Part shown: piece after piece, positions 1 to 6,756 of the stretch
Layout of the letters: each line of letters begins with the position of its first letter
How positions within the stretch are numbered: position 1 is the stretch's first letter
Assembly: GCA_037128175.1 (NCBI GenBank)
Contig: JBAXWY010000032.1
Span: 1 to 30,997, forward strand
Length of the DNA: 30,997 nt
DNA from: Methanothrix sp.
GTDB taxonomy: Archaea; Halobacteriota; Methanosarcinia; Methanotrichales; Methanotrichaceae
Direction: 5' to 3'
The notes under the pieces: model-generated
Told to the model about the DNA's origin: nothing
Seen by the model: the letters and a program-made list of their open reading frames with translations, nothing else
Databases searched by the model: none
Made by a program: the position numbers and the translations under genes

Positions 1-19
1 ATCACCTTAAATCGTTGTG

Positions 20-573
20 ATTTCCACGGCTGAAAAGTCGTGGCCCCATTGAAGCCACGCGATAATGCCGTCTGTGTCCTGAAAGTTTTTTCGCCATTTC
101 CACGGCTGAAAAGTCGTGGCCCCATTGAAGCCGAGCCGGACATCATCACCACAAAAGCATCTCCAGATTTCCACGGCTGAAAAGTCGTGGCCCCATTGAA
201 GCAAGAGAGTTGGAGTTGGCGAAGCGATGAGACCAAATGAGTTTTCGATAGGCACGAAGCAGTTGGCGCTCAACCGCCAGAAATTGCGTTGTGCGAGTTG
301 CGGCGCGAGGATCACAGCGCTCGGCCTCGATGGCCGTTCGGCTCATAGTTACGGCGAAGGGGCTCAAGCCCACCATATCCGTCACGTGAAGTTCGGCGGG
401 ACGGCATCGGTCGATAACTGCGTGATCCTCTGCGAATCGTGCCACTACTCCGTGCACGAGGGTGGAAACTACCGCTTTGGCACGGTCATTGGGCGTCCGA
501 GCGACTACCCGCATTATCGAGGGTAGCCGCCCATGACATCTCCACGGCTGAAAAGTCGTGGCCCCATTGAAGC
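20..573 (+). CRISPR. CRISPR array (probably the trailer end, continuing left of the window), type I-G/I-U-like repeat
   Basis: Identical 36-bp repeats ATTTCCACGGCTGAAAAGTCGTGGCCCCATTGAAGC at 20-55, 96-131 and 167-202, plus a 1-mismatch copy (ATCT...) at 538-573. Spacers are 40 bp (56-95), 35 bp (132-166) and 335 bp (203-537). The repeat folds as CCACGGCT-GAAA-AGTCGTGG and ends in ATTGAAGC, which suggests + orientation. cas4-cas1 and cas2 lie nearby. Confidence 0.97.
227..526 (+). CDS. Small HNH endonuclease (Zn-binding) encoded between CRISPR repeats 3 and 4
   Basis: 99 aa: RCASCG ... AHHIRHVKFGG ... DNCVILCESCHYSVH, i.e. CxxC, HH, N, CxxCH of the HNH (ββα-Me) fold. GGAG at 212-215 upstream of the ATG. 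Confidence 0.88.
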   Translation: MRPNEFSIGTKQLALNRQKLRCASCGARITALGLDGRSAHSYGEGAQAHHIRHVKFGGTASVDNCVILCESCHYSVHEGGNYRFGTVIGRPSDYPHYRG

Positions 574-590
574 CGAAAACGCTTTATTCT
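574..590 (+). promoter_or_regulatory. Putative archaeal BRE/TATA promoter immediately after the last repeat
   Basis: CGAAAACGCTTTATTC: purine-rich BRE-like stretch followed by TTTATT about 25 nt before ATG 611, which fits a leaderless transcript. Confidence 0.45.
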
Positions 591-610
591 CGCGTGGTCT
601 ATTTATAGCG

Positions 611-814
611 ATGACTGCTAAAAAAACCCCTAAGCTAAAGCCAAAAGCTCATAAGGGTGAGGTCCCTCGTGGAGCCAGAACCGTGGCCGGAATAGCGGGG
701 GGTGCTGTATTTGGTTTTGCAGTCGGAGGCCCGGCAGGGGCTATGTTCGGCGGCATGGCAGGGCTGATAATTGGGGCCTCTTCTGATGTGGGGGCCTACA
801 TGGACGACTGGTGA
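611..814 (+). CDS. Small glycine-zipper membrane protein (67 aa)
   Basis: MTAKKTPKLKPKAHK basic N-terminus, then GIAGGAVFGFAVGGPAGAMFGGMAGLIIG (GxxxG repeats). ATG 611 preferred over 533, which would translate through the repeat. Confidence 0.7.
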   Translation: MTAKKTPKLKPKAHKGEVPRGARTVAGIAGGAVFGFAVGGPAGAMFGGMAGLIIGASSDVGAYMDDW

Positions 815-821
815 CCCACAG

Positions 822-1229
822 TTGGCTGATCCGATTCCGCTTTCGGAAAGCGTCTACGCCCTTATTTTAGGACTCGCTGCAGCGGCATCAATTCCTTTTG
901 TGCTTCTTATCAAACAGTGCAACTCCGAACTGAAGAGCGAAACGAAGAGGAGCATCGCCGCCCTTCGCAAACGAGAGCATGATAACGACTTTTACCTGGA
1001 AATGTTTCACCTATCTCGGCGGTATCATGAGGGAAATTCTCAGATAAAATATACCTGCGCATCTTTTCTGGGCATATTGGTATCTACCGCATTCGGATTT
1101 GCATATGACCGTCGTTGGGTTACATTCGACGAGTTTTATATCAAAGCGATCCTGATATTGTCAGGAGCTTTCTTTGTGGTGCTTGTTCTACCTCTTGCTT
1201 GGAGATATATTACCTGTCGCTGGCAATAG
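822..1229 (+). CDS. Hypothetical membrane protein, about 3 TM helices
   Basis: In the ORF 771-1229 frame. TTG at 822 is preceded by GGTGA (810-814), which overlaps the upstream stop. Three hydrophobic segments (VYALILGLAAAASIPFVLLI; ASFLGILVSTAFGFAY; AILILSGAFFVVLVLPLAW). Confidence 0.65.
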   Translation: MADPIPLSESVYALILGLAAAASIPFVLLIKQCNSELKSETKRSIAALRKREHDNDFYLEMFHLSRRYHEGNSQIKYTCASFLGILVSTAFGFAYDRRWVTFDEFYIKAILILSGAFFVVLVLPLAWRYITCRWQ

Positions 1230-1299
1230 CCGGGAATAAAACGGTCCTTTAAGATTATTTCGTCCTCTGTGCGCATCTCGTGCCTCTGTGGTTATATTC

Positions 1300-1400
1300 T
1301 AAAAATGCAAATAATATATATGACATGCCACGCACTCGCATTTTTAATGTCATAGATAATAAATATCTTTATTAATAATGACTATTATTACTACTACGGT
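1300..1400 (+). promoter_or_regulatory. AT-rich cas promoter region with two interleaved inverted repeats
   Basis: TAAAAATGC (1300-1308) / GCATTTTTA (1338-1346) and TATGACAT (1319-1326) / ATGTCATA (1347-1354). AT-rich tract and GGTGA RBS before GTG 1407. Confidence 0.5.
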
Positions 1401-1406
1401 GAGTAT

Positions 1407-3137
1407 GTGATTCCTAAAGCCGAAGAGCCCAACCAAGATTTGCCTGAGCTGATTCCCGCCCGTATGCTCAACGAGTTCGCCTACTGCCCTCGCCTCTGCT
1501 ATATCGAATGGGTGCAGGGAGAATTTTTGGACAGCGCCGATACGGTGGATGGCAGATTTCAGCACAGGCGCGTGGACGCCGGCTCTGACAAAGCCGCCGA
1601 GGAGTTCGAAACATTTCATGCTCGATCGGTCTACCTTTCCGGGGCGGGTATCACCTGCAGAATCGACCTTCTGGAAGGCGATGGCGGCCATGTCACTCCA
1701 GTGGACTACAAAAGGGGAGAAGCGCCTGATATCCCGGATGGTGCCTACGAACCGGAGAGAGTTCAGCTCTGTGCCCAGGGATTGGTGCTGAGAGAAAACG
1801 GCTTTGTCTGCGATGAGGGAATCGCCTACTTTGTCAAATCGAAGAAGAGAGTGCCCGTTCTGTTTGATGACGCCCTGATGGGCAGAACCAAGGAACTCAT
1901 CGCTGCGCTCCGGATCGCGGCGGATCTGGGAGAGATGCCGCCTCCCTTGCAGCACAGCCCCAAGTGCAACCGCTGCTCACTGGCTGGCATCTGCCTGCCC
2001 GATGAGATCACCCTACTCAAAGAGATGGAGGTAGATGATGCAGAAGCTGCAAAAAATGGCAGGGAAGCAGGAATCGAAGAGGGGGTAGCTCTGAAAGAGG
2101 CTCCGTCCGGCCAAATCAGAAGGCTGCTTCCCTCTCGGGACGACGCCATACCCGTTTACGTAGTCGGTCGTGGCAATACCGTTCGGAAGAAAGAAGAACG
2201 CCTGGAAATATGGTCGCGGGATGGCAAAGTCAGTGAGCCAAAGCTAAGAGAGATTTCTCAGCTCTCGCTCTACGGAGGCGTGGAGATAACCACCCCGGCT
2301 ATGGTCGAACTGATGCAAAGAGGAGTGCCCGTTATCCACTTCACACATGGTGGCTGGTTTCAGGGAATCTGCCTGGGAACGACTCACAAAAACGTTGAGC
2401 TGAGGATACATCAGTTTCAGTGTGCCATGGACCCGAAAAGATCGATACTGCTGGCTCGAAAGGCCGTATCCGGCAAGATCAAAAACTGCCGGACGCTCAT
2501 GCGCAGAAATGATCCCGAGCGAAGCACAAGCTCCCTTAACCTGATGGCAAAACTGGCCGCAGAGGCGGAAGAGGCATCAAGCAGCCAGAGCCTGCTGGGC
2601 ATTGAAGGAGCGGCAGCGGAATGCTATTTTTCCCGGTTTGCCAATCTGTTGAAAGAAGGCGGCAAGGACTTTTCTTTTACGGATCGAAACCGCAGACCAC
2701 CGAAAGATCCTGTGAATGCAGTCCTATCCTACCTCTACGGCATTCTGGTCAAAGACCTGTTTGTCACTCTCTATGCGGTGGGCTTTGATCCTTATCTTGG
2801 ATTTTATCACCGACCCAGATACGGCAGGCCTGCTCTGGCCCTGGATATGATGGAGGAATTCCGCCCCCTAATTGCTGATTCCGTGGCTATAAACCTGTTT
2901 AATAATGAGGAGCTTTCCAAAAAAGATTTCATCAAGACTCGTGCCGGTGTCTCCCTGACCTCCAACGGAAAGAAGGCCGTCGTGTCAGGCTACGAACGCC
3001 GCATGGAAACGGAGATCGTTCATCCCGTCTTCGGCTACGTAGTTAGCTACCGAAGAGTGCTGGAAGTACAGGCCCGCCTCCTGGCGCGAGCCATCTCCGG
3101 CGAAATCCGAGAGTATCCCCCCTTCTGCACCAGGTAA
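1407..3137 (+). CDS. cas4-cas1: CRISPR-associated Cas4-Cas1 fusion (GSU0057-like, type I-G/I-U)
   Basis: N-terminal Cas4 (YCPR, RIDLLE...PVDYKRG, QLCAQ, PKCNRCSLAGIC Fe-S cysteines). C-terminal Cas1 (LLGIEGAAA, RNRRPPKDPVNAVLSYLY, GFDPYLGFYH, LALDMMEEFRPLIAD). Confidence 0.96.
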   Translation: MIPKAEEPNQDLPELIPARMLNEFAYCPRLCYIEWVQGEFLDSADTVDGRFQHRRVDAGSDKAAEEFETFHARSVYLSGAGITCRIDLLEGDGGHVTPVDYKRGEAPDIPDGAYEPERVQLCAQGLVLRENGFVCDEGIAYFVKSKKRVPVLFDDALMGRTKELIAALRIAADLGEMPPPLQHSPKCNRCSLAGICLPDEITLLKEMEVDDAEAAKNGREAGIEEGVALKEAPSGQIRRLLPSRDDAIPVYVVGRGNTVRKKEERLEIWSRDGKVSEPKLREISQLSLYGGVEITTPAMVELMQRGVPVIHFTHGGWFQGICLGTTHKNVELRIHQFQCAMDPKRSILLARKAVSGKIKNCRTLMRRNDPERSTSSLNLMAKLAAEAEEASSSQSLLGIEGAAAECYFSRFANLLKEGGKDFSFTDRNRRPPKDPVNAVLSYLYGILVKDLFVTLYAVGFDPYLGFYHRPRYGRPALALDMMEEFRPLIADSVAINLFNNEELSKKDFIKTRAGVSLTSNGKKAVVSGYERRMETEIVHPVFGYVVSYRRVLEVQARLLARAISGEIREYPPFCTR

Positions 3138-3165: not shown

Positions 3166-3462
3166 ATGGGCGAACTGAAATGCTACGTAGTCAGCTACGA
3201 CATAATGGACCCAAAGCGCCTGCATCGTGTGCACAAAACCATGAAAGGTTTCGGAGATCCAATACATTACTCCGTCTTTCGGTGCCTTCTCACCGCCAAG
3301 GGAAAAGTGGAGCTTGTCGCGACACTTACAGAAATCATCAAACACAACCATGACCGCATAATGATAGTAGACCTGGGACCCCTGGACGGCAAAGCGGAAG
3401 AAAGGATAGAATTCCTGGGCGTGCACCCCTCTAACATAGAAAGCAAGGCAGTGGTAGTCTAA
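3166..3462 (+). CDS. cas2: CRISPR-associated endoribonuclease Cas2
   Basis: YVVSYDIMDPKRL...GDPIHYSVF motif; 98 aa; directly downstream of cas1. Confidence 0.96.
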   Translation: MGELKCYVVSYDIMDPKRLHRVHKTMKGFGDPIHYSVFRCLLTAKGKVELVATLTEIIKHNHDRIMIVDLGPLDGKAEERIEFLGVHPSNIESKAVVV

Positions 3463-3540: not shown

Positions 3541-4416
3541 ATGTTCTATCTGGGAGAATACGACGAAGAGACGGCCAAAGAGATCAAGAGCTATCTGGAT
3601 AAAGCCGGCCTCAAGGTGGATACGAGATCCTGCCTGGTAATGGAGGAGGAGACAACTTACACCCTCAAGGACAAGCTGAGCGCCGTCAAAGAGTTTATCG
3701 AGGACCACAGCCAGTACGAGTACTATTTCTCGGCACTAAAGAGCGTCCTGCCCCAGGCCACGCCCGAGAATTTCGAGGACCTTTTCTTAAAAGAGCTGGA
3801 CCCGCTCATGATGGAGAAAAGAGACAAAATTCTGGCGCTCTCTGAAAATTCAGAAAGCCTTTCCCCGGAAGAAGGGGAGGCCCTGAAATTCGGTTCAGAG
3901 GAATGGATGAATAACGCCCTCTTCATCTCAAGAGCCCGCATCTTTGCCGGGATGGTCCTTTCTCTAAACGACATAAAGGTCGGTGAAGCCATAGAGAATA
4001 AGCTGGACGATCCAGTTATCGAAATAACCGTCGATCCGGATGACTATGAAGATATGCCGGAGCAGATGAAATGCGATATTGATTTTTATCTGGAGAAGGC
4101 CGTCAATATCTTTGTCGATGAGTTCACCACCCCTCTTGCCATCGATCTGAATGACGAGTTTTGGGATACCTATCCCTCAGAAGCCCAGCGCCTTAAGGTC
4201 CTGGGATTGCTGATCGAAAAGCTGGCTACATCGCCCGCTTCCCGCAAGATGGATTTTGCAGAGTTTGCCGAAGAATGCACCATGACTTTAGAGGATGATA
4301 GCAGCGTTCTGAACGTTTATGGCGATGATGTAGCCGAGGATCTGGCCAGGGTGCTGGAGAAGAGCGGAGTCGTAAAGTGGAAGGGAGACAAGCTCAAGTG
4401 GAAGAGCAAGGATTGA
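3541..4416 (+). CDS. Acidic hypothetical protein
   Basis: 291-aa ORF with host-like codon usage and a TATA-like element upstream; no family recognised. Confidence 0.8.
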   Translation: MFYLGEYDEETAKEIKSYLDKAGLKVDTRSCLVMEEETTYTLKDKLSAVKEFIEDHSQYEYYFSALKSVLPQATPENFEDLFLKELDPLMMEKRDKILALSENSESLSPEEGEALKFGSEEWMNNALFISRARIFAGMVLSLNDIKVGEAIENKLDDPVIEITVDPDDYEDMPEQMKCDIDFYLEKAVNIFVDEFTTPLAIDLNDEFWDTYPSEAQRLKVLGLLIEKLATSPASRKMDFAEFAEECTMTLEDDSSVLNVYGDDVAEDLARVLEKSGVVKWKGDKLKWKSKD

Positions 4417-4471
4417 TCGGGCTATCAGGATCATTTGTTCCATCTTTTTTTGAGAGAAATTTTTTAGGCTA

Positions 4472-4524
4472 TTTATAAAGTGTTTATAAGTAGTTTATAA
4501 ATCTTAAATACTCATGTTTATATA
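4472..4524 (+). promoter_or_regulatory. Cluster of tandem TATA-like boxes upstream of tbp
   Basis: TTTATAA at about 4472, 4483 and 4494 (about 11-bp period), then TTAAATA (4504) and TTTATATA (4517). Confidence 0.55.
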
Positions 4525-4562
4525 CCCCCAGTTTGTAAGGGATAATCCGGAGATACTTGAGT

Positions 4563-5114
4563 ATGGAGTCCACAATTAATATTGAGAACGTGGTGGCATC
4601 TACCAAGCTGGCGGAAGCGTTCGACCTGCACAAGATCGAGGCCGAGCTGGAGGGTGCGGAGTATAACAAGGAAAAGTTTCCCGGACTCGTCTACAGGGTC
4701 AAAGCCCCCAAAGCCGCTTTCCTTATATTCACTTCCGGCAAAGTGGTATGCACCGGAGCCAAGAACGTCGAGGACGTTCGCACGGTCATAACCAATATGG
4801 CCAAGACACTCAAGTCCATTGGCTTCGAGAACATCGATCTGGAACCTGAGATCCACGTCCAGAACATTGTGGCCTCCGCTGATCTGAAGACTGACTTGAA
4901 CTTAAACGCCATTGCTCTCGGTCTAGGCCTGGAGAACATCGAATATGAGCCGGAGCAGTTTCCCGGGCTGGTCTACAGGATCAAGGTGCCCAAAGTGGTA
5001 GTGCTCATATTCAGCTCCGGAAAACTGGTGGTAACCGGCGGCAAAACTCCGGAGGAGTGCGAAGAGGGCGTGCGCATCGTGCGAATGCAGCTGGAGAACA
5101 TGGGGCTGCTCTAG
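4563..5114 (+). CDS. tbp: TATA-box-binding protein
   Basis: Two TBP repeats: NIENVVAS...FPGLVYR...[14 protein letters not shown] and QNIVAS...[13 protein letters not shown]...[14 protein letters not shown]. Confidence 0.98.
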
Positions 5115-5220
5115 ATCACTTTTTATATAAAATCATCCTGAAATATATAAATCGCTAGCAAAAAAATATTTAAAGTCAGAACGCTATTTAAGCTTCACGA
5201 AAGATAATGAAGGTGGGGCT

Positions 5221-5361
5221 TTGTCTGACGTTGGCGAGCAGAAAGATACAACTGCATTTGTGGATGGACTGATGAAAAGCAAATACTCCGACCTGATCAT
5301 TCTCTCGACCGTGATTCTGGCCTTCTTGATTCTGATAATAATATTTGCTACATTAACATAA
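5221..5361 (+). CDS. Small single-TM protein (46 aa; not in the ORF track)
   Basis: TTG start after AGGTGGGG; MSDVGEQKDTTAFVDGLMKSKYSDLIILSTVILAFLILIIIFATLT; TATA-like motifs upstream. Confidence 0.6.
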   Translation: MSDVGEQKDTTAFVDGLMKSKYSDLIILSTVILAFLILIIIFATLT

Positions 5362-5403
5362 TCAAAAAATAAATAATAGAAGATGGCCTTAAGCCTTATG
5401 TGA

Positions 5404-6756
5404 TCATAATCCTCGAAAGTGCTCTTTTAGCCGTTCCTCAATCTCCGCCAGGCTCAGGCTCTCCTGTGCCCCTCCGGACATGTCACGAATCGTGAGCAAT
5501 CCGGCATCCAGCTCGTCCTTGCCCACGATTACCACAAACTTCGCCCCCGCGCTGGCTGCCGCTTTGAGCTGGGCGCTTAAGCTTCGGCCCATGACATCTA
5601 TTACCAGCGGCACGCTTTTGCGTAACTCCCTGGCAATCTTCGTTGCCTCTACCTTGACATCGGGCGTAAAGGCTAAAAATACCGGCAATGTGCGCGACCC
5701 TTCCAGCTGCACAATCTCCATGATGCGGTCAAAGCCCAGGCCAAAGCCCGTGGAAGAGGTCTCCTTGCCACCGAAGAGGCTGGCCAGCTCGTAAGTTCCT
5801 CCCCCGCAGATCTGCCGCTGTGCGCCGAGACCCTCGGCATAGATCTCAAAGACTGTTCCGGAGTAGTACTCGAGACCCCGCACGACCTCAAAGTCAATGG
5901 TGAAGTTGACTCCATAGGCCTCCAGAAGATCCACCGTCTCCTGGAATTCCTCCAGCCGTAGCTCGGAGCTTACCGCCCGCCCCTGGCGCGCTGAGCTGCG
6001 ACCGGATGCCTGCACACCCGCAGGCGCGTCCGCGGGCGCGCTCGCTCGCGCGGCCTCTCCGACTGGGGGTGGCCCCATATCCAGGACGATCTCGGCTGCC
6101 TTATCCAGGGCGCTCTGCCCCTTCAGGTCGATCAGCTCCAAGATACCGAGATGGCTCTGCCCGATATCCTCCAGGAGGGTGGCAAGAGCTCCCCGCTCTT
6201 TCTTGTCGATCATCCTCATGACCGAGGAACGGTGTTCCGCCTCGATCTTGCTGAGCAGAGTGCGGATCAATCCCAGGTAGCCGACGTGAATATCCCCTGC
6301 CACGCCCACGCTTTTGAGCATCTTGTCCGCGAGAGCGATGGCCTCTGCCTCAGAATCGGGCTTGGCGCCGCCAATGAGTTCGCAGCCCATCTGCCAGAAC
6401 TCTCTAAAGCGCCCTCTCTGCGGACGCTCGTAGCGAAAACAGTTGCCGAAATACCAGAGCCTCTGCGGCTTCGGGGAATTTTGCAGCTCGGAGACGTACA
6501 TGCGCATCACGGGTGCTGTCAGCTCCGGCCTTAGCGCGAGATCGCGCCCGCCCTTATCCGTGAAGCTGTAGATCTCTTCTACCACGGACGCGCCCGATTT
6601 TATGGTGAAAAGCTCGAGATGCTCAAAAGTGGGGGTAGCTACCTCCTGGTATCCCCAGCGCTCTAAAACACCTTGCATGGCCTTCTTGGCCCGGCCCCTT
6701 TTCTCTGTCTCCTCTGGGAGAAAATCCCTGGTGCCTCTCGGTCTCTGGATGGTCAT
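5404..6756 (-). CDS. hisS: Histidyl-tRNA synthetase
   Basis: RPRGTRDFLP, LALRPELTAP, FRYERPQRGRFREFWQ, VRGLEYYSG, GGGTY, GFGLGFDR and a C-terminal anticodon-binding domain. Confidence 0.98.
   Translation of the reverse strand: MTIQRPRGTRDFLPEETEKRGRAKKAMQGVLERWGYQEVATPTFEHLELFTIKSGASVVEEIYSFTDKGGRDLALRPELTAPVMRMYVSELQNSPKPQRLWYFGNCFRYERPQRGRFREFWQMGCELIGGAKPDSEAEAIALADKMLKSVGVAGDIHVGYLGLIRTLLSKIEAEHRSSVMRMIDKKERGALATLLEDIGQSHLGILELIDLKGQSALDKAAEIVLDMGPPPVGEAARASAPADAPAGVQASGRSSARQGRAVSSELRLEEFQETVDLLEAYGVNFTIDFEVVRGLEYYSGTVFEIYAEGLGAQRQICGGGTYELASLFGGKETSSTGFGLGFDRIMEIVQLEGSRTLPVFLAFTPDVKVEATKIARELRKSVPLVIDVMGRSLSAQLKAAASAGAKFVVIVGKDELDAGLLTIRDMSGGAQESLSLAEIEERLKEHFRGL

Follow-up and report, generated by a model that had tools for sequence, protein, structure and literature searches.

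The 30,997-nucleotide (nt) stretch of DNA analyzed here, called the window below, is a whole contig (JBAXWY010000032.1 of assembly GCA_037128175.1; contig C32 of genome G000) of the archaeon Methanothrix sp. [quoted passage not shown] CRISPR arrays are usually seen as stores of 30- to 40-nt memories; in this one, a spacer's place is filled by an entire gene that is under purifying selection. Comparative alignments show the repeat-HNH-repeat block to have a history separate from its surroundings, because homology stops at the repeats, the nearest genome found is without the unit, and a second allele at the same site is far more diverged than its flanks. The reading that we favor, at about even odds (a probability near 0.5), is that a foreign HNH gene was lodged as cargo at the old end of the array, is exchanged as a repeat-bounded block, and depends on the array transcript for its expression.

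An HNH gene in the last spacer position

The end of the array and the gene within it are laid out as follows, in window coordinates (L033 is a related locus described in the next section).

20..55, plus strand: CRISPR repeat of 36 nt, equal to the array consensus
96..131, plus strand: CRISPR repeat, equal to the array consensus
167..202, plus strand: penultimate repeat, perfect; a 7-base-pair (bp) stem pairs 171-177 with 184-190, followed by CCCC and then ATTGAAGC
203..226, plus strand: leader of the HNH gene (24 nt; GGAG at 212-215), in which homology with L033 starts at 212
227..526, plus strand: HNH endonuclease gene, 99 aa and stop; minimal beta-beta-alpha-metal core with two CxxC pairs
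527..537, plus strand: 11-nt stretch from the stop to the terminal repeat; one difference in L033
538..573, plus strand: terminal repeat with one mismatch, T to C at repeat position 3 (window 540), outside the hairpin

The first three repeats, each 36 nt long, are mutually identical, and full repeats in register bound the HNH unit on both sides. The interval between the penultimate and terminal repeats (203-537) measures 335 nt, against 34-39 nt for the ordinary spacers of the array (n = 21, on contig C7 of the same genome), so that by length the unit is no ordinary spacer. An earlier, sequence-only reading of the window had given the positions of the repeats, the interval, the open reading frame (ORF), the GGAG motif, and the 24- and 11-nt flanks, all of which proved correct on re-measurement. 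It had also seen neither transposase nor terminal inverted repeats, and the search agreed: no inverted repeats bound the unit, and around it no transposon or insertion sequence features (transposase, terminal inverted repeats, target duplication) were found beyond the repeat itself. The two flanks sum to 35 nt, a normal spacer length; this may be coincidence, and by eye they show no likeness to the 42-nt spacer found at this site in the nearest genome, G102. The last HNH codons and the stop form a 10-bp hairpin ahead of the terminal repeat (498-532; minus-strand DNA fold, z −1.9).

The rest of the array lies on contig C7. The genome contains 26 copies of a 33-nt repeat core, 22 of them at the end of C7 and four in the window, versus none in a reversed control. 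Contig C7 ends in the array (89574-91156), which there comprises a leader of about 415 nt downstream of csb2 and 22 repeats. Because the last full spacer on C7 ends with positions 1-19 of the window, C7 and C32 carry one array, and the HNH unit thus stands in the final spacer slot, at the trailer end, of an array with about 25 repeats. The tail of C7 holds one further repeat and the first 18 bases of that last spacer, probably an assembly loop or a duplicated unit. Across the two contigs, the locus runs cas3g-cas8g/csx17-cas7g-csb2, leader, about 25 repeats, HNH gene, terminal repeat, small variable genes, and cas4/cas1-cas2. It is a type I-G CRISPR-Cas locus, since all type I-G genes give family matches, cas2 with Pfam and the others with NCBIfam at scores above every cut-off (cas3g, 642 bits; cas8g/csx17, 319; cas7g/csb1, 63; csb2, 129; cas4/cas1, 737). 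The host is an archaeal methanogen, described as a freshwater organism, with a gene for TATA-binding protein at 4557-5114 and an McrA match above cut-off.

Misassembly or a chimera was considered as the source of the arrangement and is ruled out by three contigs that span both junctions. Metagenome contig L031 equals window positions 149-2910 at 100% identity, and L032 equals positions 1-1367 at 99.93% and has extra array upstream; both may share a sampling campaign with the window's genome. The third, a 398-nt contig from the independent DNA run X2, matches positions 173-570 without a difference and so reaches 30 nt into the upstream repeat and 33 nt into the terminal one.

The encoded protein matches the Pfam HNH family PF01844 (E 6.6e-8; 33 bits, cut-off 21.4). 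When 40 family members are aligned, C22, C25, H49, N64, C69, and C72 are among the invariant columns, and H50, H73, and H77 are nearly invariant; all are present in the window protein, so that the earlier description of an intact HNH frame with CxxC, HH, N, and CxxCH residues holds. The AlphaFold model (mean predicted local distance difference test score 89.1) places strands at 46-50 and 65-69 and a helix at 70-76. Among solved structures, the EcoKMcrA nuclease domain comes first (6ghc; E 1.9e-4 by fold and 6.4e-5 by sequence); Cap5, TagI, and ScoMcrA follow, with weaker likeness to the HNH parts of Cas9, IscB, and HNH-Cascades. PHROGs and PADLOC return only generic HNH and type IV restriction cores (PADLOC mREase_IV, E 5.4e-6). 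The gene is kept as a protein under purifying selection, because its ratio of nonsynonymous to synonymous divergence (dN/dS) against the L033 gene is 0.144 (dS 0.48).

The protein is a bare 99-aa nuclease core without an extra DNA-binding domain. The type IV restriction nucleases EcoKMcrA, ScoMcrA, and TagI are its best sequence and fold matches in the catalytic core, but they run to about 280-530 aa and carry modification-reading domains, whereas the window protein is the core alone. It likewise differs from free-standing HNH homing endonucleases in having no sequence-reading DNA-binding domain. Type I-E and I-F HNH-Cascades (PDB 8yb6, 8ydb, and 8zp7) also tie an HNH nuclease to a type I system and show weak fold likeness (E 0.06-0.14), but there the HNH domain is fused to a Cascade subunit, while here it is a separate 99-aa gene within the array. 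To our knowledge, the HNH-Cascade systems have no Cas3; the present locus has cas3g. Ten longer relatives of the family consist of HNH alone or of DUF222 plus HNH, and none of the ten is fused to an informative domain.

Alleles of the block and an integron connection

The window's genome has no second or source copy of the HNH gene. At E ≤ 1e-10 the gene is found in 1 of the 392 genomes of the class, which is the window's own, and no match better than E 4.8e-6 was found in the other 60 relatives searched. Such rarity in binned genomes weighs little, because assemblies break at repeats; for the same reason, array finders and the binning of metagenome-assembled genomes will usually miss units of this kind. 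Yet the stretch or part of it is present in 20 listed sequencing runs from 15 studies, eight of which hold at least half of the sampled words. In a large protein collection, 223 proteins match at E ≤ 1e-3, with 175 cluster representatives in an exhaustive search. The best 120 of the 223 are 63-87% identical, and almost all are about 100 aa long; the named sources in this set are mostly bacteria (Thermodesulfobacteriota, Gammaproteobacteria, Bryobacteraceae, and Blastocatellia), with one from Halobacteriales. On these matches the family is spread across bacterial phyla. An all-against-all comparison of neighbors at 41 loci revealed no conserved neighbor gene, and only three archaeal loci share neighbors; at eight homologous genome loci, neither a CRISPR-like array nor flanking repeats were present. 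The guanine-cytosine content of the gene is 0.587 versus 0.508 for the genome. The best reading of its composition and relatives is that the gene is foreign and was acquired by horizontal transfer.

The window's repeat, at up to eight mismatches, was found in four of the loci L023-L069 (L031, L032, L033, and L054), always with the HNH gene in the sense direction, and is lacking at 38 of the 42 homologous loci tested. In two of the four, L031 and L032, the unit is a copy of the window's own. The remaining two carry homologues beside repeats at the same site, so the window's arrangement is not a one-off, a possibility that the sequence-only reading had named alongside misassembly. With the junctions supported, homologues flanked by repeats, and other gene-sized units present in related arrays (see the last section), none of the outcomes that it had named as refuting its idea was observed; its interpretation is borne out in part.

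At L033 the array has 15 repeats that are a one-base variant of the window's, and the two arrays have no spacer in common. Between the last perfect repeat and a decayed one lies a 400-nt unit (4322-4721) with a 63-aa ORF of no annotated family, upstream of the HNH unit. The decayed repeat is followed by 243 nt, the HNH gene, 11 nt with one difference, and a terminal repeat with six mismatches, in which two of the seven stem pairs are broken; past it come a different small gene and then cas4/cas1. The L033 protein is 86% identical to that of the window, and the DNA is 86.9% identical without gaps over window 212-571. Homology is confined to that stretch and picks up again only at 1357, at the start of cas4/cas1 (80.9%), the sequence between being unrelated.

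Locus L054 (a metagenome contig, 4400-6700) is, by its gene order and alignments, a decayed copy of the window's CRISPR-Cas locus. It contains a leader-like remnant, one repeat with one mismatch, 148 nt, the HNH gene, 106 nt, and a repeat with five mismatches, whose stem has one broken and one wobble pair. Beyond this distal repeat are an acylphosphatase-like gene on the other strand and the tail of a 67-aa ORF known from the window (96.6% identical). A cas4 fragment, 92% identical as protein, has an in-frame stop and is cut near residue 139; this stump joins directly to a gene whose homologue (82%) comes after cas2 in the window, with cas1 and cas2 deleted from L054. No effector or other cas genes lie within 5 kilobases (kb). 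The HNH protein is 63% identical to the window's and keeps all catalytic and zinc residues. The flanks of the two loci are 86-97% identical as DNA, while an alignment of the two HNH genes extends over only 110 nt (70%); synonymous sites of the HNH genes are saturated (56 of 66 differ), against a dS of 0.62 for the adjacent cas4 fragment.

The nearest genome found, G102, is 95.8% identical over window 574-1994 and has no HNH gene. At the site of the unit it carries a 42-nt ordinary spacer and then its own degenerate terminal repeat (one substitution and one extra base), and the window and G102 thus present filled and empty alleles of one precise site. The terminal repeat, 538-573, is where homology with L033 ends, and homology with G102 starts at 574. 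Such a separate history points to the repeats as portable recombination arms for gene-sized cargo. In a tree of the HNH proteins (100 columns) most forks stay open; the only supported clade joins the window to P0001 (87% identical) and L033/P0002.

One member of the family, encoded at L034 and 72% identical to the window protein, is a true integron cassette. After its stop codon comes an imperfect palindrome of 126 nt, GCCTAAC...GTTAGGC, with bulged bases, which folds as attC with a z-score of −4 (0 of 200 shuffles as stable), and the 3' end of this attC is present three times in tandem. L059 is probably also a cassette (fold z −3.3). A strict attC detector picked out L034 convincingly and one other match, L043, which folds weakly (−36.8 kcal/mol for 126 nt versus −80.9) and lies about 80 nt after the stop; a lenient detector reported 4 of 37 homologous loci versus 2 of 37 reversed controls. 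The idea that the whole HNH family is an integron cassette family is ruled out, as only L034 and probably L059 qualify.

The L054 allele bears a trace of the same kind. A stretch 29-55 nt past its HNH stop matches the 3' half of the L034 attC at 25 of 27 nt, and a 24-nt attC motif occurs at 2 of 103 loci, L034 and L054. On this shared relic, the L054 allele at least therefore descends from an integron-type cassette; the relic itself does not fold as attC (z about −1). No attC site follows the HNH ORF in the window or in L033, and a search of eight loci with Rfam gave neither an attC family nor another RNA family, only a weak CRISPR-DR16 match below cut-off. The relic hints at traffic between integrons and CRISPR arrays.

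Expression and competing explanations

The sequence-only reading held that the gene runs in the sense direction of the array without a recognizable promoter, and this was borne out. The archaeal TATA consensus is TTTAWATA, and no such motif with up to one mismatch occurs in window 1-599; in the whole window there are 62 TTTAWATA-like motifs versus a shuffle mean of 35. The window copy is probably expressed from the array transcript. Three metatranscriptome libraries from three studies contain contigs over 212-458, 304-558, and 285-497; these mean presence in the library only, with no strand, ends, or DNA-free control, and the runs were chosen for holding the stretch. Since such contigs do not reveal ends either, gaps in RNA-run cover (X11 and X17 past 571, and everything upstream of 212) are given no weight.

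The earlier proposal that repeat processing releases the gene as a discrete RNA stands in part. In passages on the type I-G enzyme Csb2, cleavage of a 36-nt repeat is placed 4 nt past a 7-bp stem, leaving an 8-nt 5' handle, with Csb2 staying on the 3' hairpin; the rule was measured in Thioalkalivibrio (PMC9638904). The layout of the window repeat, with a 7-bp stem (one pair G-U in RNA), CCCC, and ATTGAAGC, fits this rule, and cleavage is predicted only: Csb2 would cut before 195 to give an 8-nt handle at 195-202, and cuts in both flanking repeats would give a 371-nt RNA, 195-565. Precise release is not a conserved feature, because the distal hairpins of L033 and L054 are damaged and their genes lie 243 and 148 nt from the upstream repeat.

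Under the favored reading, the HNH gene would have been acquired horizontally and have come to sit where a type I-G array has its final spacer. The block would enter arrays and move between them by recombination within the conserved repeats, acting as portable homology arms, with viral contigs that carry single repeats (see below) as available partners. The window copy would be read from the leader within the precursor of CRISPR RNA (crRNA), and Csb2 would cut the flanking repeats to yield the RNA of about 371 nt, with the handle first and the GGAG-led ORF behind it. With low confidence, we suggest that the protein is a self-standing nuclease of defense or selfish type that acts outside Cascade and spacer uptake, the array offering a safe, transcribed landing place. 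Three points suggest cargo status, namely the lack of a partner gene beside the bacterial homologues, the reduction of the protein to its core, and the persistence of the gene in L054 with no cas genes nearby.

Several points weigh against this reading. The recombination event is not seen directly, and gain in the window lineage cannot be told from repeat-repeat loss in G102. An approximately unbiased (AU) test does not reject L054 within a single archaeal clade (p 0.78), so separate acquisition of the L054 allele rests on synonymous saturation at 66 sites and on the attC relic. The RNA contigs are assembled and none extends upstream of 212, which leaves them without a link to co-transcription with the array, and the spacing in L033 and L054 leaves room for a promoter of the gene's own. 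All matches of the protein are generic HNH cores. Finally, the window's genome has no integron integrase (best score 40.7 bits, cut-off 265) that would account for an integron-type cassette in an archaeal array.

A simpler history would be a single old insertion at the trailer, by illegitimate recombination or an integron-type event, followed by vertical descent and later losses between repeats; the gene would then be a passenger, neutral or of mild use, and deletions would have produced the compact form seen in the window. The AU result is compatible with one clade of archaeal alleles, the site is the same in three lineages, L033 is looser, with decayed repeats and the further 400-nt unit, and spacer loss through recombination between repeats is common. 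Such descent fits poorly with HNH synonymous sites that are saturated between the window and L054 beside a far less diverged cas4 fragment, with an HNH stretch more similar to L033 than the cas4/cas1 start is and unrelated sequence in between, and with the absence of the unit from the closest relative; a dN/dS of 0.14 argues against a neutral passenger. We consider it possible but rather unlikely. It is very unlikely that the protein is a homing-type selfish nuclease that cuts this repeat or the terminal junction and is copied in by repair through the flanking repeats, an idea raised by the sequence-only reading. Presence and absence at one precise site beside a 95.8% identical flank, two deeply diverged alleles there, and repeats that bound the unit exactly are what homing might leave. 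The idea is weakened by a 99-aa core with no added DNA-binding domain, by the 38 homologous loci without the repeat (and by carriers, L031 and L032, that are the window's own unit), by a single gene copy, always in last position, among about 25 identical repeats, and by the rarity of the gene in the class when, within the taxonomic family, 39 of 105 genomes carry the repeat.

The sequence-only reading had also compared the array to an integron. As a working platform of that kind, the array would capture whole promoterless genes between its repeats, through integration of over-long DNA by Cas4/Cas1-Cas2 or through repeat-specific exchange, express them from the leader, and release them by Csb2 cleavage as single mRNAs. 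Like an integron cassette, the unit is a small, apparently promoterless ORF between structured repeats of a tandem array and would be read from an upstream promoter, and the perfect or near-perfect full repeats that bound it, without inverted ends or transposase, together with the sense orientation in the window, L031, L032, L033, and L054, suit such a platform. So do the missing TATA-like motif upstream, the type I-G cleavage layout, the RNA-library contigs over the gene, six more gene-sized units in related arrays, including a sense acylphosphatase-like gene in L097, and the genuine cassette at L034 with the 25/27-nt relic in L054. Unlike a cassette, the window unit has no attC, its genome has no integrase, and its bounding repeats are those of a type I-G array. 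Insertion by Cas1-Cas2 takes place at the leader end, but the unit is at the trailer end; the distal repeats of L033 and L054 decay like ordinary terminal repeats; the distance from repeat to gene varies (24, 243, and 148 nt); the embedded genes of L070 and L101 run antisense; toxin-antitoxin pairs, for which any site will do, account for many of the embedded units; and the acylphosphatase-like family is multi-copy across the genome. What stands of the comparison is the cassette at L034 and the relic in L054, while nothing shows insertion by Cas1-Cas2 or an expression platform, and we hold a working platform to be improbable. The same doubt attaches to the wider proposal that type I-G arrays of this methanogen family are gene-cassette platforms, in which whole repeat-bounded genes (HNH, acylphosphatase-like, toxin-antitoxin) would pass between arrays and mobile elements by way of the repeats and be transcribed from the leader, in which Csb2 would cut translatable RNAs with crRNA ends, and which could import bacterial integron cassettes across domains. 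If cargo were indeed expressed and trimmed by the crRNA machinery, CRISPR arrays would be a second cassette platform beside integrons. A word search of the open-access literature returned no paper on such a platform or on a complete gene in a spacer position, a result that leaves absence unproven. Archaeal integrons are in print, and the passages found mention neither CRISPR nor HNH (PMC9668308).

Least probable, with only a slight chance in our estimate, is the earlier suggestion of an addiction or safeguard toxin of the CRISPR-Cas locus, similar to CreTA, in which a crRNA-like RNA from the degenerate repeat lets Cascade silence the toxin. A nuclease could plausibly be toxic, and the gene sits within a cas locus beside a degenerate distal repeat, as do the regulatory mini-arrays treated in passages of a preprint, which also state that repeats recombine readily and that repeat remnants are possible recapture targets (bioRxiv 10.1101/2023.03.03.530964). 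The mini-arrays and CreTA, however, have spacer-sized pseudo-spacers that partly match promoters, and the window has a 335-nt protein gene with no target match. A crRNA-like regulator beside the HNH gene was sought and rejected: the stretch beyond the terminal repeat, the 5' flank, and the final ordinary spacer scored no better than shuffles against the cas promoters or the locus. The HNH gene of L054 is intact after the loss of cas1, cas2, and most of cas4, with no cas gene within 5 kb, and bacterial homologues have no conserved partner; these facts weaken the suggestion.

Other genes among the repeats and beside the array

Further genes occur between repeats of this family, as the sequence-only reading had supposed they might. 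Among the loci fetched there are six inter-repeat gaps with genes, 704-3963 nt long. The genes found between repeats are listed below.

L097 503-1162: acylphosphatase-like gene
L070 767-1279: acylphosphatase-like gene
L101 3168-3584: acylphosphatase-like gene
L100 115-1004: nucleotidyltransferase/HEPN (MNT/HEPN) pair
L101 2120-6082: MNT/HEPN pair
L090 1537-2845: PIN/UPF0175-like and MazF-like pairs
L092: secreted-looking protein

The acylphosphatase-like gene of L097 is in the sense direction between a one-mismatch repeat and a perfect one, with 25 nt after its stop; in L070 and L101 the embedded genes run antisense to the repeats. Other CRISPR loci are known to house cargo genes, toxin-antitoxin pairs among them, and insertion sequences, and the MNT/HEPN, PIN/UPF0175-like, and MazF-like toxin-antitoxin pairs here are likewise foreign genes in or beside arrays. 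The window unit differs from these in being one gene trimmed to 24 + 11 nt of flank, without transposase or inverted ends.

Acylphosphatase-like genes lie between or beside repeats at four loci (L097, L070, L101, and L054, the last at 5481-5987). The proteins are 32-41% identical to each other, and some have a KEMKGDV-type repeat tail. In the window's genome the family is multi-copy, with 11 stretches on seven contigs, including C29, C15, C2, C45, and C1; three full-length copies on C29 are near a broken tyrosine-recombinase fragment. The family may belong to a mobile element.

Two related viral contigs from IMG/VR each have one solitary intergenic repeat, with four mismatches to the window repeat (L111, 3455-3490; L112, 2045-2080). 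A solitary viral repeat of this kind could be an RNA decoy or a recombination handle.

Downstream of the terminal repeat, the window contains the following features, with an AT-rich stretch between the small ORFs and cas4g/cas1g.

611..814, plus strand: small ORF of 67 aa with a glycine-zipper-like stretch; weak Pfam match (E 0.018), below cut-off
771..1229, plus strand: ORF, at most 152 aa, that has hydrophobic stretches but no family match; like the 67-aa ORF, in the variable stretch between the array and cas4/cas1
1407..3137, plus strand: fused cas4g/cas1g, NCBIfam NF049935 (736.6 bits, cut-off 560), with Pfam Cas1 and Cas4
3166..3462, plus strand: cas2, Pfam PF09827 (E 2.2e-14)

The 67-aa ORF is common to the window and G102, and only its 3' end is left in L054. 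After cas2, positions 3541-4416 encode a 291-aa protein without a Pfam, NCBIfam, or PADLOC match. Its homologue after the cas4 stump of L054 (6690-7568) is 82% identical, and another, 39% identical and from another genus, is encoded at L101 3644-4513 within the 3963-nt gap between two parts of an array; the 291-aa protein may represent an undescribed CRISPR-linked gene.

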